From: an uncultured Erysipelotrichaceae bacterium
GTDB lineage: Bacteria > Bacillota_I > Bacilli_A > Erysipelotrichales > Coprobacillaceae
NCBI GenBank assembly: GCA_947573745.1
Contig: CANPGX010000001.1
Location: 1 to 34,540, forward strand
DNA: 34,540 nt
Direction: 5' to 3'
How positions within the stretch are numbered: the stretch's first letter is position 1; every line of letters starts with the position of its first letter. Made by a program: the position numbers and the translations under genes. Positions 24,703 to 34,540 of this stretch are shown piece by piece. The notes under the pieces are model-generated. The model was not told the origin of the DNA, searched no databases, and saw only the letters and a list, made by a program, of their open reading frames with translations.

Positions 24703-24731
24703 TTGAGAAGCCCTAAGAGGCATGCTATAAT
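24703..24731 (+). promoter_or_regulatory. sigma-A-type promoter of the pfl locus
   Basis: TTGAGA - 17 nt - TGcTATAAT (extended -10), about 35 nt upstream of the RBS GGGGGA and the ATG at 24766. Confidence 0.5.
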
Positions 24732-24765: not shown

Positions 24766-26810
24766 ATGACATTTAAAGAATTATGGCATGATCACTGGAA
24801 TGGCTTTATCCCATCTGGTAAGTGGAATAAAGTTGTTGATTTAAGAGATTTTATTCAAGCTAACTTCACACCTTATGATGGTGATGAAAGCTTTTTAGCT
24901 GGTCCAACTGAAGCTACAAAGAAATTATGGGAGCAAGTGATGGATCTAACGAAACAGGAAAGAGAAGCCGGTGGTGTTTTAGATATGGATACAAAAATTG
25001 TATCTACGATTACATCTCATGGCGCTGGCTATCTTAATAAAGATCTAGAAACGATTGTTGGTTTCCAAACGGACAAACCATTTAAACGTTCTTTACAACC
25101 TTTTGGTGGTATTCGTATTGCTGAACAAGCTTGTGAAACCAATGGTTATAAAGTAGATCCTGAAATTTCACGTATTTTTAGAGATTGGCGTAAAACACAC
25201 AATCAAGGTGTATTTGATGTTTATACACCAGAAATCAGAGCTTGTCGTTCAAGCCATATCATTACAGGATTACCTGATGGTTATGGTCGTGGACGTATTA
25301 TTGGTGACTATCGTCGTGTTGCTTTATATGGTGTTGATAAACTGATTGAAGATAAGAAAAATCAATTGGCAACATCTCAAGTACGTATGACTTCTGAAAA
25401 CATTCGTTTACGCGAAGAATTAAGCGAACAAATTCGTGCATTACAAGAATTAAAAGAATTAGGTCACATTTATGGGTATGATATCAGTCAACCTGCAAAA
25501 AATACAAAAGAAGCTATTCAATGGTTATACTTTGGATATTTAGCAGCCGTTAAAGAACAAAACGGAGCAGCTATGTCTTTAGGTAGAACATCAACATTTA
25601 TTGATATCTATGTTGAAAGAGATTTAAAAAATGGCACTTTTACAGAAGAACAAATTCAAGAATTTATCGATCATTTTATCATGAAGTTAAGATTAGTCAA
25701 ATTTGCTAGAACACCTGACTATAACGCTATTTTCGCTGGTGATCCAACTTGGGTAACTGAATCTATTGCTGGTGTGAATATCGATGGTCAACACATGGTA
25801 ACCAAGACTTCTTTCCGTTATTTACATACTTTGGAAAATCTAGGAACTGCTCCTGAACCAAATATGACGGTTTTATGGTCTATTAAGTTACCTGCAGCAT
25901 TCAAGAGATATTGTGCTAAGATGTCTATTCATACTTCTTCTATTCAATATGAAAATGATGATTTAATGAGAGGCACTCATGGTGATGATTACGCTATTGC
26001 ATGTTGTGTATCAAGTATGCGTGTTGGTAAAGAAATGCAATTCTTTGGTGCTCGTGCAAACTTAGCTAAATGTTTATTATACGCTATTAACGGTGGTGTT
26101 GATGAAAAGACTAAGAATTCCGCCCAGTTGAAGGTGACTACCTAGAATATAATGACGTGATTGAAAAGTATAAAGATATGATGCAATGGTTAGCTGGTGT
26201 TTATGTGAATGCTTTAAACATCATTCACTACATGCATGATAAATATGCTTATGAAAGAATTCAAATGGCTTTACATGATCGTGAAGTTAAACGTTATTTT
26301 GCTACTGGTATCGCTGGTTTATCTGTTGTCACTGACTCATTATCTGCTATTAAATATGCTAAAGTTAAAGTTAAACGTGACGAAGATGGCATTGTTGTAG
26401 GATACGACGTAGAGGGTGATTTCCCTAAATATGGTAACGATGATGATCGTGCCGATGAAATTGCTTCATGGTTAGTTGAAACATTTATGGACTTCGTTCG
26501 TTCTCATCATACTTATCGTCATTCAGTACCAACTACTTCTATCTTAACCATCACATCAAATGTTGTTTATGGTAAAGCTACAGGGGATACTCCTGATGGT
26601 AGAAAAGCTGGTGAACCTTTCGCTCCTGGTGCTAATCCAATGCACGGTAGAGATACACACGGTGCTATTGCATCTTTATCTTCAGTTGCAAAATTACCAT
26701 TCAAGGATGCCCAAGATGGTATCTCTAATACATTCTCAATGATTCCAGGCGCTTTAGGAAAAGATATTATTACATCTGGATATCTTGATCTTGATGATTT
26801 AGACAAATAA
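24766..26810 (+). pseudogene. pflB: formate C-acetyltransferase (pyruvate formate-lyase) core, frameshifted near 26110-26116 and lacking the C-terminal glycyl-radical domain
   Basis: Track ORFs 24766..26145 and 26157..26810 are collinear with PflB (active-site AIACCVS; ...[30 protein letters not shown]...). The frame switches between ...GGVDEKTK (frame 1) and [15 protein letters not shown] (frame 0). The ORF ends ...[19 protein letters not shown] instead of continuing into the RVSGY domain. Confidence 0.85.
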
Positions 26811-26812
26811 CC

Positions 26813-27019
26813 ATGGTAAAAGAAAAAGATATCGATCAACTTATTCAAATGCTTGACCAATTTGCTATACAAGGATCAAGCCATATGAATGTTCAGGTCA
26901 ATCAAGATGGTGAATTAAACACTGAGGAAATCAGCATTACACAAGGTATGGACTGTGCCCTTGGGGATACAGCTTGTAAAATTCCTAATCTTCCTATGGA
27001 AGATGATGATGAATATTAA
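26813..27019 (+). CDS. 68-aa ORF, degenerate paralog of the N-terminal part of the PFL glycyl-radical domain (no RVSGY motif)
   Basis: KDIDQLIQMLDQFAIQGSSHMNVQV aligns with [24 protein letters not shown] in the next ORF. The C-terminal half is unrelated and includes CALGDTAC and an acidic tail. The ATG lies 2 nt after the core stop, and no clear RBS is present. Confidence 0.4.
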   Translation: MVKEKDIDQLIQMLDQFAIQGSSHMNVQVNQDGELNTEEISITQGMDCALGDTACKIPNLPMEDDDEY

Positions 27020-27040
27020 TTAAATAAGGAGGTTAAAACT

Positions 27041-27280
27041 ATGGAAAATGAACAAAGAGTAGATAATTTAGTGAATATGCTTGATGCATATGTTCAACAA
27101 GGAGGACATCATCTAAACGTAAATGTTCTTTCAAAAGAAACATTATTAGATGCTCAAAAACATCCTGAAAATTATCCACAATTAACAATTCGTGTTTCTG
27201 GATATGCTGTTAACTTTGTAAAACTTACTAAAGAACAACAGGATGACGTTATTTCACGTACATTCCACGAAAGTATGTAA
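27041..27280 (+). CDS. stand-alone glycyl-radical domain (PFL C-terminus / GrcA-like), 79 aa
   Basis: GGHHLNVNV...[37 protein letters not shown] is the canonical PFL C-terminus with the radical glycine motif RVSGY. Has its own strong RBS (AAGGAGG, 8 nt before the ATG). Confidence 0.85.
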
Positions 27281-27425
27281 CTATCTATAATTTTCATCTT
27301 AGCATGATTAAATTATAGCCAATTTAACAAACAAAAACGGGTATTTTTAGGATTTGTTATTGATACAGTATAGTTTCAACTTAAAAACAACTTACCCCAA
27401 AATTACCCCATAAAAAGTTAGAGAA

Positions 27426-27615: not shown

Positions 27616-27960
27616 CTATATATCTAATTGATCTATCTGTTGATTCAAAACTTCTTTGTATCTCTTCATATTGATATTGTATAGTTCACATATCTTGTAA
27701 TCCGCTTCTAAGAACTGATACTTATAACATAACAAAGGATATTCTTTGATGACCTTATCTAGTTCCAACCATGCTAGCAACATGCTTTCATAAGCTTCAT
27801 CTCTCTCCTGGAGCCTATCAACTAGGCTTTTATTTGATGTAGATCTTACTTGATCATAATTTATACTAGCTGTTCCGTGTAACTTACTATTGAGATACTC
27901 AAACTTGTTTTTAGCTTTGCCGTAAGATTCTAGAAATACTATTTTCTCTTTTCTATTCAT
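27616..27960 (-). CDS. hypothetical; possible sigma-70 region-4 / DUF1492- or RinA/ArpU-like phage regulator
   Basis: 114 aa. Based on general shape only: a coiled N-terminal half followed by ...PLLCYKYQFLEADYKICELYNINMKRYKEVL, which resembles an r4-type HTH. Last gene of the element. Confidence 0.3.
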   Translation of the reverse strand: MNRKEKIVFLESYGKAKNKFEYLNSKLHGTASINYDQVRSTSNKSLVDRLQERDEAYESMLLAWLELDKVIKEYPLLCYKYQFLEADYKICELYNINMKRYKEVLNQQIDQLDI

Positions 27961-27968
27961 TGGCCACT

Positions 27969-28217
27969 TTATAAACCTTCGATTCTAAATGAGTTGATGT
28001 AGTCTATTTGTTCTTGATTCAATTCTAGTTCCTTTGCTATTTCTAATATCTCTTCTTGGCTCATTTCATTTATCATCATAATTGACTTAAACTTTTCTTT
28101 TTGATCACGTTGATATCTTCTTTTTATACCACTATTGATTCCACCTTTTCGGCCATTTACTCGTGCTCGTTCTTCACCTTTTCTATAGGGTTTAAGGTTT
28201 TCTAAGGTTGCTCTCAT
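27969..28217 (-). CDS. small basic protein (82 aa), possibly DNA-binding / small-terminase-like N-terminus
   Basis: Start moved to the ATG at 28217 behind AGGAGAG. MRATLENLKPYRKGEERARVNGRKGGINSGIKRR is Lys/Arg/Gly-rich. Functional guess only. Confidence 0.3.
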   Translation of the reverse strand: MRATLENLKPYRKGEERARVNGRKGGINSGIKRRYQRDQKEKFKSIMMINEMSQEEILEIAKELELNQEQIDYINSFRIEGL

Positions 28218-28283
28218 ATCTTCTCTCCTTGCGAGTTTATTCACGCTTCAACATATTAAAAAGGGAAAAAGATAGACTTACGC

Positions 28284-28874
28284 CTATCCTATATACTTTA
28301 AGCCACCATCAAATTTTTCACCAATGAAATCATTCATTCCCATAATACCAAATCTAGTAGAACGGTTCCCCAATCCATTTTCAACATAATCTTCTACTTG
28401 TTCTTTTTCTCTATTAAGATAATCAATAGTTTTCTTAACTCGATCTTCTTCTAAAAAGCGTGGAATCGCAACACCGCTCTTATTGATAGCGCCATTAATG
28501 AGTTTCAAAGCATACATATCTTCGATATAATTGTTATTCACGATCTCATGTAATGCCATTTCATCATAAGCTCCAAGTTCTATACCTTTGATAATATTAC
28601 TTAAGCCAACTTGGTAGCTTGTATCTGACAACCTTCTTTTCATTTCTGCTTTGTTATTTTCTTGTACTGCTGTGATTGCTTGATCTAGAATATCATTCAA
28701 AAGCTTTGCATACTTCTCTTCTACCTTGTGGAAATTACTCTGTAAAAGCTCTTTTTGTTTTTTCTTCCCCTCAATGGTGAGATCTTCATTATCATCTACT
28801 TTTGCAATTTTATTCATGATCTTATTTCGTTCGTTCTCATATTCATTTAATAAACGTAAAAATTTTTCTTTCAT
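28284..28874 (-). CDS. hypothetical protein (196 aa), element accessory gene B
   Basis: Track ORF trimmed to the ATG at 28874 behind AAAGGAG. K/E/N-rich and helical-looking, with no TM segment and no motif recognised. Confidence 0.6.
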   Translation of the reverse strand: MKEKFLRLLNEYENERNKIMNKIAKVDDNEDLTIEGKKKQKELLQSNFHKVEEKYAKLLNDILDQAITAVQENNKAEMKRRLSDTSYQVGLSNIIKGIELGAYDEMALHEIVNNNYIEDMYALKLINGAINKSGVAIPRFLEEDRVKKTIDYLNREKEQVEDYVENGLGNRSTRFGIMGMNDFIGEKFDGGLKYIG

Positions 28875-28896
28875 TCCTCTTATATTCTCCTTTCTC

Positions 28897-29490
28897 TTAT
28901 AAAATAAAATCATGGTTGAAGAAGTTTTCTAATTGAGCTTCAATGGCAAGCAATGGGCTAGCCCCACTAAGATATAAGGCTGTTCCTAAACTAGCTCTAT
29001 CCCAGTTCCAAATGTAATGCTCGGCTCCTTCTTTAGCATTGGTCAATAGATCTTGTACGGCATCAGCTGACAAGATATCAATATTCTTTGCCTTTCCTAC
29101 CTCATGTAATAATCCAATGAGCGCCTTGCATGCAATGTAATTCTTTCTATAGCTCTTAATGTAGACTTCTGCTTCTAGATCACTTGTACTTTCTTTACTT
29201 GCCCTAATAGCTTCTAGTGTTGAGGTAAATGTATTTGGTGCTGGTTCTGTAAGAATGTTGTGCATTTCTTCAAATAATTTATTAAACTCTTCATTGATGA
29301 TTGCTAAAGCAGATTGTCTTTCATTGATAACTGTATTGTTCAGCTGTGCAATTGCCTTATCTAATTTCTCATCTAAAAGGGCTCCTCTATAATTATTTTT
29401 ATACTCTTTTTCCACTTTTTCATAGTTCTCATAAGCTGATGTTAAAACATCATTGTATGTATTCATGACTTTTTTTGTTTGTTCAAACAT
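28897..29490 (-). CDS. hypothetical protein (197 aa), element accessory gene A
   Basis: RBS AAAGGAGA upstream. Helical-looking, with no TM segment and no motif recognised. Confidence 0.6.
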   Translation of the reverse strand: MFEQTKKVMNTYNDVLTSAYENYEKVEKEYKNNYRGALLDEKLDKAIAQLNNTVINERQSALAIINEEFNKLFEEMHNILTEPAPNTFTSTLEAIRASKESTSDLEAEVYIKSYRKNYIACKALIGLLHEVGKAKNIDILSADAVQDLLTNAKEGAEHYIWNWDRASLGTALYLSGASPLLAIEAQLENFFNHDFIL

Positions 29491-29515
29491 AGTTTTATTA
29501 TTCTCCTTTTGTTAT

Positions 29516-29713
29516 TTAAATGACTTTTACTTGATGAGCTTCTTTACCGCTCTTTCCTTCTACTGACTGAAATTCTACTTCTTGGTTCGCCACTAGCTTT
29601 CTAAATCCTTGCATATCAATGAAACTTTGATGTACGAAGTATTCATGGTCATCTTCTCCCATGATAAAGCCATAACCTTTTTCTGTGATATATCTTCTTA
29701 CTGTTCCTTTCAT
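29516..29713 (-). CDS. cold-shock domain protein (CspA family) carried on the element
   Basis: 65 aa with RNP1-like KGYGFI and an RNP2-like FVH motif. Confidence 0.9.
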   Translation of the reverse strand: MKGTVRRYITEKGYGFIMGEDDHEYFVHQSFIDMQGFRKLVANQEVEFQSVEGKSGKEAHQVKVI

Positions 29714-29899
29714 TGCTTTACTATCCTTTCTTTATATTTCTTGTTTACTTCCCCCACCACCCACACCACTTATAAATGTATCTTCACTTACTTATGCTCC
29801 TTTCTATTGTTCTTGTGAGCTCGTAAGCTCTTGCGATTCAAACATTCTTATCAAAGAGGACTTATTTATCGTATTTGTACATAGTCCTCTGTAATCGTC

Positions 29900-30136
29900 C
29901 TATAAAGCCTTTATTCTATTTACAATTTCATTCTTATAGTTTTCTAAATCATTCCTTAATGCTTTTAGATCATCTATCTTTGATGTTTGTATGCGATTAT
30001 CTAGCAATCCCTCTATCAGTTTATCTATGGATCCGTAATAGGATCTATTGATGTAGCCCGTCTTGGCTTTCTTTTGAAGGATATAAGATAGATCATCTTC
30101 TTTTATCCTGTATTCGTCATTTAACTGTACAATCAT
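29900..30136 (-). CDS. hypothetical protein (78 aa)
   Basis: RBS AGGTGA. The ATG overlaps the upstream stop (ATGA). A hairpin lies just downstream (29855..29890). Confidence 0.5.
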   Translation of the reverse strand: MIVQLNDEYRIKEDDLSYILQKKAKTGYINRSYYGSIDKLIEGLLDNRIQTSKIDDLKALRNDLENYKNEIVNRIKAL

Positions 30137-30387
30137 GACTTATCACCTACTTTATAATCACCGCATGGGGCACCAATAAGGAGTTTAATAGCTGTATCAA
30201 ACCCAGCTACAAATCCCTGTCTTTCATTGATGACACCATATTCATTGATCAGGTCTTTTACTTCCAAAGGGATGGGCGTAGACTTTGTTATCTGTTCCAT
30301 TATCCTCTTTTCCTCTGTGTTCTCTTCTTCTGCTAAGGTCCAATCCCAATACAGATCTTCTATCAATGATTGCTTGATCTTATTCAT
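30133..30387 (-). CDS. hypothetical protein (84 aa)
   Basis: RBS GAGGTGA 6 nt upstream. Overlaps the end of the upstream ORF. Confidence 0.5.
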   Translation of the reverse strand: MNKIKQSLIEDLYWDWTLAEEENTEEKRIMEQITKSTPIPLEVKDLINEYGVINERQGFVAGFDTAIKLLIGAPCGDYKVGDKS

Positions 30388-30838
30388 CTTTCATCACCTC
30401 TTGGTGTTCTTCCCATTCTTTCATTGCCTTTTTATGCTGTTCTACCCACTCTTCTAAGATAGCAAAGGTTCTTGGTAACTCTCCTTTTTCTCTAAAGTAA
30501 GTATGCATATATGAGAAAATACATAAGCTATTCCAATTGTTAAAATCTTTCTCACATTCTCTGCCTCTAGTCATGCCATAATTAAATGCGTAGATCATGG
30601 CCATTGCTTTATTCTCGTGTCGTGAATCTATTTCTTTAAGAACATGCAAGTAATTCCTATTTTCTATTAATGGCATGTCATCTAATTCTTTCATAGTCTG
30701 TTCAATTCTTTTATTCATTTCTATATACCCCTTTTCCTTGAATTGTGGTATAATCTCTTTGGTGTTTGGATTATACCGTTGGCTCTTTATTGTTGGCGCA
30801 ATATTGAGCCTTTTTATTTTGCGAAATCTATTTATCAT
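30380..30838 (-). CDS. hypothetical protein (152 aa; an alternative RBS-preceded start at M41 is possible)
   Basis: Long ORF in the operon frame. The N-terminal 40 aa are very basic. No motif recognised. Confidence 0.5.
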   Translation of the reverse strand: MINRFRKIKRLNIAPTIKSQRYNPNTKEIIPQFKEKGYIEMNKRIEQTMKELDDMPLIENRNYLHVLKEIDSRHENKAMAMIYAFNYGMTRGRECEKDFNNWNSLCIFSYMHTYFREKGELPRTFAILEEWVEQHKKAMKEWEEHQEVMKDE

Positions 30839-30851
30839 GCGTCTTTATTAG

Positions 30852-31076
30852 TTAGTCTTTTAGGCGTATCGTATTTTCTAGACAATCTATAATATCAGTA
30901 ATTCGTTGCAACCATAATAGTCTCATCACCTTTAAGATTGTATCGAAGTCTGCATTTTCACCATGTTGTGCGATAAACTCTTTAGCTTGATCATATGATT
31001 TTGAAAATTCAGCTTGTCTAGATTTTTCTGCTTTTTGTTGCAATATTTCTAACACCATATTTTTATATCCTTTCAT
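30852..31076 (-). CDS. hypothetical protein (74 aa)
   Basis: Track ORF 30852..31121 trimmed to the ATG at 31076 behind GAGGTG. The longer version would start inside an iteron and has no RBS. Confidence 0.45.
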   Translation of the reverse strand: MKGYKNMVLEILQQKAEKSRQAEFSKSYDQAKEFIAQHGENADFDTILKVMRLLWLQRITDIIDCLENTIRLKD

Positions 31077-31105
31077 TTTTAGCACCTCTAGTGAGGGGAT
31101 ATTTT

Positions 31106-31337
31106 TGATAATGTTATCCATTTTTGTTGATTCTATCAGTGTTTTTATAACATTATCATGTTGATAAGGTTATCTATTTTATTTGATAACATTATCAATT
31201 CTTACAAGCACTTAATTTTATTGAATAACTTTATAACATTATCAAGTTGATAAAGTTATATTTATATTGATTTAATCAATATTTTTTAATAACATTATCA
31301 ATTTTTAAGTGTCACTAGAGAAACTTGATAATGCTAT
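31106..31337. repeat. iteron array / probable replication origin of the element
   Basis: ATAACATTATCA occurs perfectly at 31147, 31186, 31233 and 31289. Inverted copies TGATAATGTTAT occur at 31106 (perfect) and, with 1 mismatch, at 31162, 31248 and 31326. An AT-rich palindrome TTGAT-TTA-ATCAA lies around 31267-31279. Confidence 0.75.
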
Positions 31338-33136
31338 TCATTTTCTTCCAATTCTTCTATTTTTTTCAAACAAATAACTGTTTTCCTTTTGGTATCTCCG
31401 TTTGGACTTCCTATTCTCTTTATCTCAATAAGGTTACTTTTACTTAAATCTGCTTTGGCTCGGTTAAAAGTACCTGTGCTTATACTCATAGCTTTAGCCA
31501 ATTCATTTAATTCTGTAGCTTCCATCCCCCCTTCTTGGAGAGAATTTAATATAAAGTTCTTGGCTTCATCAAAAGCTGTACCTTTTTTATCTATTCTTAC
31601 TTTCCCATTTTGATAGTCATAGTCTTTCTTATTGGTAGTTCCCCAGGCTTGAGGCACCCCATCATTTATAGAAAATATCGTTGTCATCTGTTCAATAACA
31701 TAATTGCTTTTTTCATGAGACAAGTAACGCATATTATCATTTCCAGTGAAGCCAACAATAAATACACTTCTTGCAATATCCCATATATCCGAACTATCAG
31801 CAATACGATTGCGGCCATAAGCATTATCTCTCTTGTTTGTATGGGCCATGATAAGCACTGTCACACCATATTTCATGCCATAGCCTATAAGGGGATTCAA
31901 AACATCTCTCATAGCATTTCTATAACCCATATTAACATTGGCTGGTATAAAACTCTGCAATGGATCAAATACCACCAGCGCCGGCCTATGGTAAGCTATA
32001 AGATTCTCTAGAAACTGGCTATTATATTTAATTTCCTTAAAGCGTGGATCCTCTAGTGGAATGGTCATAATGTTTTCCATATTAGCACCATTTCTTTTTA
32101 ATCTCCCTTTAAGTGTTGCCTGTATATCATCTTCACTTGAAAAATACATAACTTTCTGTGGTGGTTTATCTTCTATGAAATCATAAACATCAAAGAAACA
32201 AGAGCCTCCACTACTAATAGCAGCGACAACATTGCACCATACCGTGGTCTTTCCTACTCCACCATTTCCAGCTATTAAAGTGATTTGCCCTTTAGGAATA
32301 AATCCCTGAATAAGCCATTCTGGTTCCTTTTCTTCCACATTAGACATATTTACAACACTTAGATCATTAGTATTTACCCTACTATTGGTTTTACCAATAT
32401 TAGTACCCTTATCATATTTCAAAGCGCTATGTACTATCGTCTTGACCTCATCTTTCGTTAAAGGTGGATTACACTTAGCTTGATTTTCATTCCATACAGC
32501 GCTAAGGATAGCCTTATCTGATAATCCTTTTGCCTGCAACGAACTGGCCAGTTGAAACAGTGTAGCATTTCTACTGCCTTCACCTATTTCCTTTGGAAGT
32601 TCTAAAGGCGGATTGTATACGTCTTCTATCTCTATATCTTTTATACCTTTCAAGAACTCATAAACGGTCTCTGTAGCGTCATTGATATCCTCGCTTAACC
32701 ATTTATACTTCTTACCATTAATCACGCTAGGCGGTGCTAATACGTAGCCATTATCACTTCTTATGTCTATCCCTTCATAAAGATTGATCTTATTCTTAAA
32801 CTCTCCTTTTACCCAATAGTACATATGATAGCCACCACTAGGGGTTTTTACTGTTGCTGTACTTGGAAGACTAGACCCATAAGTATTGAATGATTCTTGA
32901 CCTTCAGCACCGTTCTTAACATCAACATCAACCACTAAAAGGCTATTTCCTGTAGCTATGCCGATATTATACTTTGGGTTTTTATCCCACCACTTTTGGA
33001 TAGTTTCTTTATCCACAGTTGCTTCATTCTTCCATGATCTTAATACTTGCTTGCTTTTAGATCCTTCTTGTAAGGGAAAGACCCTAAGCCCCATATTAGC
33101 GTATCTCAACGCCCACTCTTTTAAATCATCACTCAC
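31334..33136 (-). CDS. bifunctional primase-polymerase (PrimPol) fused to an AAA_25/RepA-like helicase-ATPase and a C-terminal wHTH
   Basis: PrimPol motifs LLVVDVDVKNG and PSGGYHMYYW. PriCT-like GSRNATLFQLASSL. Walker A GNGGVGKTT, Walker B ALVVFDPLQSF. The GTG start overlaps the upstream stop. Confidence 0.85.
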   Translation of the reverse strand: MSDDLKEWALRYANMGLRVFPLQEGSKSKQVLRSWKNEATVDKETIQKWWDKNPKYNIGIATGNSLLVVDVDVKNGAEGQESFNTYGSSLPSTATVKTPSGGYHMYYWVKGEFKNKINLYEGIDIRSDNGYVLAPPSVINGKKYKWLSEDINDATETVYEFLKGIKDIEIEDVYNPPLELPKEIGEGSRNATLFQLASSLQAKGLSDKAILSAVWNENQAKCNPPLTKDEVKTIVHSALKYDKGTNIGKTNSRVNTNDLSVVNMSNVEEKEPEWLIQGFIPKGQITLIAGNGGVGKTTVWCNVVAAISSGGSCFFDVYDFIEDKPPQKVMYFSSEDDIQATLKGRLKRNGANMENIMTIPLEDPRFKEIKYNSQFLENLIAYHRPALVVFDPLQSFIPANVNMGYRNAMRDVLNPLIGYGMKYGVTVLIMAHTNKRDNAYGRNRIADSSDIWDIARSVFIVGFTGNDNMRYLSHEKSNYVIEQMTTIFSINDGVPQAWGTTNKKDYDYQNGKVRIDKKGTAFDEAKNFILNSLQEGGMEATELNELAKAMSISTGTFNRAKADLSKSNLIEIKRIGSPNGDTKRKTVICLKKIEELEENE

Positions 33137-33270
33137 TCTCTCACCTCATCATATTTCAGTATTAAATCACATAAGGCAATAAAAGCTATGATGATCACCC
33201 AATACCACCTAATGCCCCCTAGAATGGCCATAGCTAACACAAACGTGTAGTATATCCATTCTTTCTTCAT
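33133..33270 (-). CDS. small hydrophobic protein (45 aa), not in ORF track
   Basis: Own translation: MKKEWIYYTFVLAMAILGGIRWYWVIIIAFIALCDLILKYDEVRE. Both ends overlap their neighbours (ATGA upstream, GTGA downstream). Confidence 0.4.
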   Translation of the reverse strand: MKKEWIYYTFVLAMAILGGIRWYWVIIIAFIALCDLILKYDEVRE

Positions 33271-33515
33271 TGTCTTACCTCTTTCATTGTTCTTAAGGCT
33301 TCTACTCGATTGCTAATGTCATAGCCTGTCATGTTCCTTTGGAACTTTCTAAACTCCTCTTGAGTAAATACCCAACCTTTACCCGTTTTAATACCTTTTA
33401 GTAGACCTAGCTCTCTCCATTCATAGACATGTTGCACTGATGTTTTCATCAATTCTGCCACGTCTTCATGTGTTAAGGGCACTAGATCTTTTAATGTTTC
33501 TTTGTCGTAGTTCAT
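33267..33515 (-). CDS. excisionase-like / MerR-type HTH_17 DNA-binding protein
   Basis: LTHEDVAELMKTSVQHVYEWRELGLLKGIKTGKGWVFTQEEFRKF fits the phage Xis/HTH_17 pattern. Confidence 0.55.
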   Translation of the reverse strand: MNYDKETLKDLVPLTHEDVAELMKTSVQHVYEWRELGLLKGIKTGKGWVFTQEEFRKFQRNMTGYDISNRVEALRTMKEVRQ

Positions 33516-33536
33516 TTCTTTAGTTTCTCCTTTCTT

Positions 33537-33734
33537 TTAGTCAGTTCTAAATAGTTCATCTATTGTTCCATCAAACTGTAGGAACTCTTTTACCTTTTTA
33601 CATTCTTCTAGTGTGAAGTTTCTTTTTCCCCTTAACTTTTCAGTTATCGCTGTAGTTCCTAAGCCAATAGCAATAGAAAGCTGTTTTCTAGTGATTCCTT
33701 TTAAAGTCAATTCACGCTCTAAAATGTAGTACAT
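33537..33734 (-). CDS. Cro-like XRE-family HTH regulator
   Basis: 65 aa. LKGITRKQLSIAIGLGTTAITEKLRGKRNFT. Divergent from the repressor gene. Confidence 0.8.
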   Translation of the reverse strand: MYYILERELTLKGITRKQLSIAIGLGTTAITEKLRGKRNFTLEECKKVKEFLQFDGTIDELFRTD

Positions 33735-33761
33735 AGTAGTATGGTCATCTCCTTTCCGGTT

Positions 33762-33828
33762 TACGAAATATCGTTAACTTGTTTACTATATTACACGGTA
33801 TAACAAATATTGTCAACGGTATATCGTT
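33762..33828. promoter_or_regulatory. repeated operator-like pseudo-palindromes in the divergent switch region
   Basis: TACGAAATATCGTT (33762..33775) and AACGGTATATCGTT (33815..33828) are 12/14 identical and 53 bp apart. ATATCGTTAA is perfectly repeated (33768, 33821). ACGGTATA is also repeated (33795, 33816). Confidence 0.55.
33788..33816 (-). promoter_or_regulatory. promoter of the Cro-like / replication operon
   Basis: Minus strand: TTGACA - 17 nt - TAATAT. The -35 overlaps one operator copy. Confidence 0.6.
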
Positions 33829-33856
33829 AATTTTTTTGTAAATACGTTTGTTTTTA

Positions 33857-33885
33857 TTGAAAATATATGTAATTTAGTTTATTAT
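33857..33885 (+). promoter_or_regulatory. promoter of the repressor gene
   Basis: TTGAAA - 17 nt - TATTAT, followed by the RBS GAGGTGA and the ATG at 33906. Confidence 0.5.
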
Positions 33886-33905
33886 TGAGATGAGGTGATA
33901 GCATT

Positions 33906-34540
33906 ATGAGAATAGAAAACGAACTAAAAAACCTTATTTTATCAAGATATAAGAGTTTGAGGCAGTTCTCTCTAGATATTGATATGCCCTATTCGACTAT
34001 AGACACTATGCTAAAAAAAGGTATAGGCGGAGCTAGCATTCAAAATATCATTAAAATTTGCCAAGCATTGGCCATTGATACTGACGCTTTGGCAGAAGGA
34101 AGACTTGAAGAGCGTAAAGCAAACGACATTGTTGTGACTTTTAGGGAACAGACTATGCTTAAAAAATATCGCTCTATTGATCAAGAAGGAAGACAAACCG
34201 TCGATACTGTTTTAAATGATATCTATGAACGTTGTAATATCATCAAAGAAGATGAAATTGTTTATGGTTCATTAAATAAATGGATTGATAAGTTACCATC
34301 TTTAGCAAGTGCGGGTATTGGTGACTATCTAGCTGATGGATATGAAACAGAAAAAATAGCAGTGCCTAACGATAGCAAAGCCAACTATGCTATTGGTGTA
34401 AATGGGGATAGTATGCTGCCAACCTATAAAGATGGTGATGTAGTTCTTGTTCAACGAACTAATGATCTCGATTATGGCGATATAGGTATCTTTATTATTG
34501 ATGGTAATTGTTTCATCAAAGAATACCAACAAGATAAGCT
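33906..34540 (+). CDS. CI/LexA-type repressor (XRE HTH + S24 peptidase domain), partial (3' end off window), not in ORF track
   Basis: Own translation: MRIENELKNLILSRYKSLRQFSLDIDMPYSTIDTMLKKGIGGASIQNIIKICQALAIDTDAL...LASAGIGDY...GVNGDSMLPTYKDGDVVLVQ...FIKEY. The GDSM serine motif is typical of S24 autopeptidases. Confidence 0.85.
   Translation, partial: MRIENELKNLILSRYKSLRQFSLDIDMPYSTIDTMLKKGIGGASIQNIIKICQALAIDTDALAEGRLEERKANDIVVTFREQTMLKKYRSIDQEGRQTVDTVLNDIYERCNIIKEDEIVYGSLNKWIDKLPSLASAGIGDYLADGYETEKIAVPNDSKANYAIGVNGDSMLPTYKDGDVVLVQRTNDLDYGDIGIFIIDGNCFIKEYQQDK

Follow-up and report, generated by a model that had tools for sequence, protein, structure and literature searches.

We have analysed a stretch of 34,540 nucleotides (nt) of contig CANPGX010000001.1, from an uncultured Erysipelotrichaceae bacterium, and refer to this whole stretch as the window. 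Four open reading frames (ORFs) on its plus strand, between positions 24766 and 27280, jointly encode one pyruvate formate-lyase (PFL), an enzyme central to anaerobic pyruvate metabolism and sensitive to oxygen through its glycyl radical, which is lost by cleavage of the polypeptide backbone. The accepted picture of PFL is that of E. coli, a single-chain enzyme with an optional spare part; autonomous glycyl-radical proteins (E. coli GrcA/YfiD and the T4 homologue Y06I) can replace the oxygen-cleaved C-terminus. Judged from its sequence, the locus in the window is very probably a natively split PFL operon of three genes, encoding a core of ~680 residues, a partner of 68 residues and a stand-alone glycyl-radical module, GrcA3.

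The core is represented in this contig by two of the four frames. The N-terminal fragment, a 459-residue ORF (24766–26145), is homologous to PFL as far as ~26117 and is then out of frame until its stop. The C-terminal fragment (26115–26810), listed as a 217-residue ORF at 26157–26810 in a frame that is open from 26115, encodes the rest of the barrel. Both match the Pfam family PF02901 (E = 4e-155 and 1e-53, the second at positions 473–647) and the model TIGR01255 (positions 2–444 and 448–662), and the catalytic Cys-Cys pair is kept (YAIACCVSS, with ACCVS at residue 412). With the AlphaFold2 model of the 231-residue core fragment of the window as query, a fold search retrieved E. coli PFL along with other glycyl radical enzymes. 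The RVSGY glycyl-radical loop is missing from the core polypeptide and sits on a separate ORF of 79 residues. When aligned to E. coli PflB, the core extends up to residue 677 and the 79-residue ORF corresponds to residues 678–759. The Pfam Gly_radical domain PF01228 is divided in the same way, with model positions 1–48 on the core and 49–106 on the 79-residue ORF; the break is thus inside this domain and not at a domain boundary, where an earlier note on this DNA had placed it. It falls ~15 residues upstream of PFL residues 693–759, the stretch replaced by E. coli YfiD (PMC8683613). What the core lacks is the last helix, strand beta-10, the glycyl loop and the C-terminal helix, and GrcA3 encodes exactly these.

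The last codons of the core (26763–26807), ahead of the TAA at 26808–26810 that closes its frame, encode a variant of a tail motif found on all split cores examined. The motif, [VI][FT].G[DY]L[DE][ILV][DE] and then acidic residues, comes directly after ALGK[DE]. The tail type closest to that of the window is DIITSGDLEVELELDEIESNE, for which one match is named Holdemania filiformis.

The radical module is encoded by grcA3 (27041–27280), which ends in RTFHESM and has the codon of the radical glycine of RVSGY at 27200–27202. A Shine-Dalgarno sequence, AAGGAGG (27026–27032), stands 8 nt ahead of its ATG, and AAGGAG-like sites are kept in all relatives. The protein matches the NCBIfam model NF038360, 'autonomous glycyl radical cofactor GrcA3', over positions 2–78 of 78 with 162.8 bits (cut-off 158). 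Against the GrcA model TIGR04365, residues 15–79 correspond to positions 62–126, and the score of 100.8 bits is below the cut-off of 170. The RVSGYAV loop is identical to that of E. coli, and the module aligns to residues 67–127 of YfiD. Among the best 120 of 7997 homologues of the module, lengths range from 77 to 119 residues and are mostly 78–82, and proteins named GrcA3 come from [Clostridium] hylemonae, Dorea, Extibacter, Mobilisporobacter and Oscillospiraceae. The gene contexts of GrcA3 homologues show a truncated core, then GrcA3, then PflA. The cores in two of these contexts are of 704 and 708 residues with no middle ORF, and a third has a 710-residue core and a middle ORF of 83 residues.

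Between core and grcA3 lies a gene for a small protein of 68 residues (26813–27019, with the stop codon from 27017), whose ATG is 2 nt past the core stop. Residues 1–33 (26813–26911) are a paralogue of the N-terminus of GrcA3, with a helix and the strand H-x-N-V-x-V. BLASTP aligned the first 29 residues to the 79-residue ORF with 13/29 identical (45%, E = 1e-7), NF038360 positions 2–30 match residues 3–31 (E = 8e-5), and hhalign comparison of the small-protein and GrcA3 family profiles gave a probability of 97.3% (E = 1.6e-11) over the first 36 columns only. The positions conserved in this region are the same as those in GrcA3 and E. coli PflB ([IV]D.L[IV].ML D..[YF] and G.H.N[VI].V), which suggests that the small protein docks at the site of the GrcA3 N-terminus. 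The duplication is old, since the 87 nt shared by the small ORF and grcA3 are only 60% identical. After the helix/strand copy comes a variable spacer, then a cysteine motif, MDCALGDTACKIPNLP (residues 46–61, 26948–26995), and an acidic end that runs to 27016.

This small protein belongs to a family of its own. Pfam found no family on it, and searches of the PDB sequences with two profiles of the small protein turned up no homologue and nothing else of significance. An initial protein search returned 11 homologues of 65–71 residues, 48–62% identical, with an invariant GDTACKIPNL block, and a HMMER search of 1.84 billion representative proteins (E ≤ 0.001) extended these to 133 or more clusters (50% identity), with few exceptions of 60–85 residues and all without stops in the frame. 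Two positions, Cys55 and Pro58, never vary within the family, and two more, Cys48 and Ala54, hardly do. The protein of the window has all of the defining traits, namely a length of 60–85 residues, the GrcA3-like N-terminus, C..AC.[IV]P[NT]L with the acidic end, and the position between core and grcA3.

Apart from the domain boundary, the description of the locus in the earlier note agrees with these results. It had reported the core stop at 26810 with a non-canonical tail (which is a conserved motif and not noise), a 68-residue ORF 2 nt later whose first half is a diverged copy of the linker and the start of the radical domain and which lacks RVSGY and ends in a Cys-containing acidic tail, a 79-residue ORF behind AAGGAGG that encodes the missing C-terminus, and an age of the duplication that the 60% DNA identity bears out. 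It had also pointed out that removal of the insert would restore a PFL of normal length, as the abutting PflB coordinates of core and module confirm.

The split layout is conserved well beyond this contig. The exact 68-residue protein is encoded in seven contigs from different samples, that is, in independent metagenome assemblies, and the contigs L001–L007 are 98.8–100% identical to the window. When one genome of each GTDB species was scanned, 27 loci came up, none of them outside Erysipelotrichales; they lie in Massilimicrobiota timonensis (a complete genome) and in Coprobacillus, Stoquefichus, Fimiplasma, Erysipelatoclostridium and other metagenome-assembled genomes. Wherever the sequence reaches far enough, the locus has a core of 686–691 residues, a small ORF of 65–75 residues and a radical module of 79–80 residues, and in many of them pflA is the next gene. 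All of the parts are under purifying selection. Pairwise ratios of nonsynonymous to synonymous substitution rates (dN/dS, Nei–Gojobori method, medians of pairs with dS between 0.05 and 2) are 0.12 for the core, 0.20 for its tail region and 0.13 for GrcA3. The small ORF, with its constant length and open frame, has a dN/dS of 0.21 across 28 species. The earlier note had suggested that the enzyme may be natively in pieces, as against a stutter of the assembly or a pseudogene in decay, and had proposed a comparison with related pfl loci. The seven identical copies, the dN/dS values well below 1 and the 27 species, in which the split and the small ORF are kept, the small frame has no stops and a continuous orthologue of ~750 residues was not found, uphold that view.

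Lachnospiraceae and Oscillospiraceae, too, frequently have GrcA3 beside a truncated core, and none of the best 120 homologues of the core C-terminus of the window has the canonical RVSGY end. Two PDB chains named 'Formate acetyltransferase', 38la (687 residues, ending SLGKED) and 38lb (739 residues), are likewise PFL chains without the canonical radical domain. The tail of 38lb, ALGKSGNVMFGECDMCEMKELDDVS, aligns to the split-core tail motif and contains CDMC; the best metagenome relative of 38lb is 80% identical, and the 79-residue module matches neither chain. Both entries must be recent since they are absent from a fold library of releases up to 2026-04-08, and others may already be at work on such enzymes. 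A set of 80 metagenome loci was picked for similarity to 38lb, which biases the sample; 53 of them are split and 17 canonical. GrcA lies downstream in 47 of the split loci, and in the other six it was not seen or the contig ends first. A neighbour-joining tree of 206 core residues, rooted at the midpoint only and without support values, has canonical forms and the two kinds of split form described below interleaved.

The cysteine motif, typically DC-x3-5-AC-x-[IV]P[NT]L followed by acidic residues, is found in one of two places. In lineages without the small ORF it is on the core itself, right after the tail motif, as in the tail of the [Clostridium] hylemonae type, GDLDLDRIEDCKDLACNIPNIEDSIDNE. 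We surveyed 82 split loci for the two arrangements. The motif is on the core tail with no small ORF in 27 loci (in cis), and a small ORF accompanies a core tail without the cysteine in 49 (in trans). No locus has both and six have neither. This mutual exclusion is significant (Fisher's exact test, p = 3e-16, with shared ancestry ignored), and each of three further cores with cysteine-free tails, looked up separately, has the small ORF. As the motif is fused to the core where no GrcA3-like copy exists, it is the cysteine motif, rather than the copy, that looks like the common functional element. The copy, which is absent from the lineages with the motif in cis, looks like a handle for its delivery.

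The arrangement of expression signals fits a single operon. A promoter-like site, TTGAGA and TG-TATAAT with a spacing of 17 nt (24703–24731, plus strand, 11/12 matches to the consensus, with an extended −10 element), lies ahead of the pfl genes. No second strong site was found on the plus strand between 24500 and 27700, and none comparable lies between the three downstream ORFs, from which we infer co-transcription. Ribosome-binding sequences precede both downstream ORFs in the relatives, nearly all of which have a gap of 13–18 nt containing GAAAGAAGTG ahead of the small ORF; in the window such a sequence precedes grcA3 only. The absence of a Shine-Dalgarno sequence of its own and the start 2 nt after the core stop point to translational coupling of the small ORF in the window, and its translation here may depend on termination and reinitiation coupled to the frameshifted core.

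A separate radical module is known to work with PFL in E. coli. YfiD residues 61–127 fold like PFL residues 693–759, PflA can activate YfiD, and YfiD gives PFL strand beta-10, the glycyl loop and the C-terminal helix in trans (PMC8683613). E. coli PFL truncated at residue 695 (tPFL) reaches wild-type-level catalysis with YfiD once activated, although binding is weak and activation poor (Andorfer et al. 2021, PMC8683613), and PflB-G734A with GrcA produces formate in vivo (PMC12338860). In the split enzyme, PflA would install the radical on free or loosely bound GrcA3, which would then dock in the vacant slot of the core beside the Cys-Cys pair. In doing so GrcA3 would supply in trans the four elements that are missing from the core, among them barrel strand beta-10 and the RVSGY loop, and the complex would act as an ordinary PFL. 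After oxygen damage only the 79-residue piece would need to be replaced. The engineered pair of tPFL (residues 1–695) and YfiD likewise consists of a radical-less core and a separate module, but it has neither the conserved tail nor the cysteine motif in cis or in trans, both of which the natural split cores have. Through these two elements the natural enzymes could gain the binding or control that is missing from the engineered E. coli pair.

The small protein would then be the trans-encoded form of the cysteine-containing extension that other split cores bear on their tails, its GrcA3-like N-terminal third probably bringing the cysteine motif to the core; it may also hold the slot while no intact GrcA3 is bound. 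Candidate roles for the motif are a clamp on GrcA3, a thiol for redox or radical control, and a contact for PflA. We tentatively suggest, as one possibility, that split PFLs are three-component systems in which the cysteine-motif element, whether tail or small protein, controls the loading, retention, exchange or redox/radical protection of GrcA3. If this is true, the element would be the first factor dedicated to the handling of a protein-radical cofactor, and the poor binding of YfiD by engineered truncated E. coli PFL would be explained.

Alternatively, the main task of the small protein could be to compete for the beta-10 slot of the core, as a placeholder or exchange factor whose helix-plus-strand copy fills this slot as long as intact GrcA3 is not bound. 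It may displace the N-terminal stump left by oxygen cleavage, to be displaced in turn by activated GrcA3. The conservation of the same positions in its first 33 residues as in GrcA3 and E. coli PflB speaks for this, and the suggestion of the earlier note, that the small protein could serve as a placeholder at the docking site or regulate it, is a plausible one. However, the split PFLs of the [Clostridium] hylemonae type have no copy and only the cysteine motif on the tail, so that a placeholder is not required for a split PFL, and the invariant Cys55-x-x-Pro58 is left unexplained. As the main role of the small protein, placeholding is therefore conceivable, with some doubt.

Several points weigh against the reading of the locus as a natively split operon with a cysteine-motif partner. 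The core in this contig is frameshifted by a deletion at ~26117, which divides it into the ORFs of 459 and 217 residues, and no pflA lies within the 34.5-kb window. Six split loci (L049–L052, L109 and L111, with gaps of 25–166 nt before GrcA) have neither a tail cysteine nor a small ORF. AlphaFold2 gave no confident fold for the core tail, which scored below 50 in a model of the 231-residue fragment with a mean predicted local distance difference test (pLDDT) of 72.7. The small protein alone also has no confident fold (mean pLDDT 52 from a 12-sequence alignment, the sole helix at residues 4–18), which is consistent with folding upon binding only. YfiD binds tPFL poorly, so a split enzyme needs extra binding elements, which we assume to be the tail and the small protein. 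A copy that takes the same slot and GrcA3 could not both be bound, and more than one role for the small protein is therefore conceivable. Assembly in trans is deduced from sequence for every member, and the organisms, in which loci rather than whole genomes were read, may have a second, full-length PFL elsewhere.

The last point leads to another explanation, in which GrcA3 is a mere spare part for such a separate full-length PFL and the truncated core is a paralogue that is inactive or functions otherwise. GrcA3 is indeed homologous to GrcA/YfiD, a known rescuer of oxygen-damaged full-length PFL (PMC8683613, PMC13450708), and our evidence covers loci and not whole genomes. But GrcA3 is directly behind a truncated core in every context examined, usually with pflA next; the core keeps its Cys-Cys pair under strong purifying selection, and the end of the core and the start of GrcA3 abut exactly in PflB numbering (677/678). 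We consider this explanation improbable.

The frameshift concerns this contig only. At the junction (26115–26118) 16 nt, ACAAGTAGGTCCTAAA, are missing that are carried by L002, L003 and L005, three contigs of the same species (98.8–100% identical) whose intact core reads through as KTKKQVGPKFRPVEGD. The deletion may be a strain-level lesion or an assembly error. It is flanked by 2–3 nt of A-rich microhomology and by coincidence creates a GAATTC site. Because of the frameshift and the lack of a nearby pflA, the PFL copy of this contig may be inactive. Split-type cores cut into two overlapping or adjacent gene calls, through either sequencing errors or real lesions, were also observed in three unrelated metagenome contigs, L045 (2641–4667), L046 (2787–4786) and L047 (2847–4900), at a different position in each; these come from a homologue search biased towards short proteins, which returned fragments of 210–403 residues.

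On these grounds the locus might be regarded as a decaying pseudogene; the gene would have been disrupted long ago by a tandem duplication of its C-terminus, with the 68-residue frame as a functionless remnant. The frameshift, the missing pflA and the internal frameshifts in the cores of other assemblies (with the bias just mentioned) would agree with this. However, in 28 species the small frame stays open at a constant length and is kept by purifying selection, it has invariant residues across its 133 or more clusters, and the core is intact in the three other contigs of the same species. Each ORF also keeps its own start codon, and ribosome-binding sequences precede both downstream ORFs in the relatives. 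Decay is thus a very improbable account, and as an explanation of the architecture we reject it; it survives only in the sense that the copy in this contig may be inactive or mis-assembled at 26117.

An error of assembly, or the interruption of a normal pflB by a mobile group I intron, intein or bypassed segment, suggested by the normal-length PFL that excision of ~270 nt would give, has a negligible probability given the identical sequence in seven independent assemblies, the two stop codons in the segment (26808 and 27017), its conserved coding gene with its own start, and the Rfam searches, which matched no family in the whole window at the gathering threshold and only chance-level eukaryotic snoRNAs and miRNAs, and no intron, at relaxed settings over 26500–27400. 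Group I and group II introns, inteins and other insertions in pflB were accordingly discarded, there being no RNA family match and no frame continuous with the host gene.

A block of minus-strand genes resembling a mobile element (27616–34540) follows directly after grcA3, where many relatives have pflA. It includes a 600-residue primase/helicase (31334–33136), an excisionase-like helix-turn-helix protein (33267–33515), a replication-initiator-like ORF (29900–30136), a cold-shock protein (29516–29713) and, as a weak match, a HEPN/AbiU2-like ORF (28897–29490), all on the minus strand. The first genes of the block also come after grcA3 in L001 and L004, the two other contigs that reach that far. 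A search of a phage DNA collection with the block gave no match, and a tRNA scan found no tRNA.

Small cysteine-containing partners encoded beside the large subunit are known from other glycyl radical enzymes, namely HpdC of 4-hydroxyphenylacetate decarboxylase and BssB and BssC of benzylsuccinate synthase. These have four or more cysteines as ligands of [4Fe-4S] clusters, and the radical glycine remains on the large subunit. The small protein described here differs from them in having one invariant cysteine and a second that is nearly so, and no sequence similarity to them was found.

The 79-residue protein itself shows no difference from GrcA3 (NF038360), a name that implies a repair part. 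YfiD has 127 residues with a disordered N-terminus of 60 and rescues the damaged full-length enzyme, whereas the module of the window has no disordered N-terminus and starts ~15 residues earlier (PflB 678 rather than 693). Although homologous to YfiD and Y06I, with an identical RVSGYAV loop, it is the only radical domain encoded at its locus. A June 2026 review of glycyl radical enzymes names formate lyases as the sole members with spare-part proteins, and of these proteins it describes only YfiD/GrcA (PMC13450708). In the literature we found no paper on GrcA3 by name, on a natively split PFL or on a partner core without a radical domain. The GrcA3 family is already named and curated; the system as a whole, with its apparently obligate split, conserved tail and cysteine motif in cis or in trans, we did not find described.

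Current annotation gives no sign that the parts belong together; the trio of M. timonensis, for example, is named by NCBI as 'formate C-acetyltransferase', 'hypothetical protein' and 'GrcA3'. Our data indicate that in many gut Firmicutes (Erysipelotrichales, Lachnospiraceae and Oscillospiraceae) the radical loop is permanently placed on a cheap subunit of 79–80 residues, and that these organisms also have a further conserved partner in the cysteine motif. If the split enzyme works as we infer, it would serve as a natural model of radical-subunit exchange, may offer gut anaerobes a route of recovery from oxygen, and would yield design rules for modular glycyl radical enzymes.

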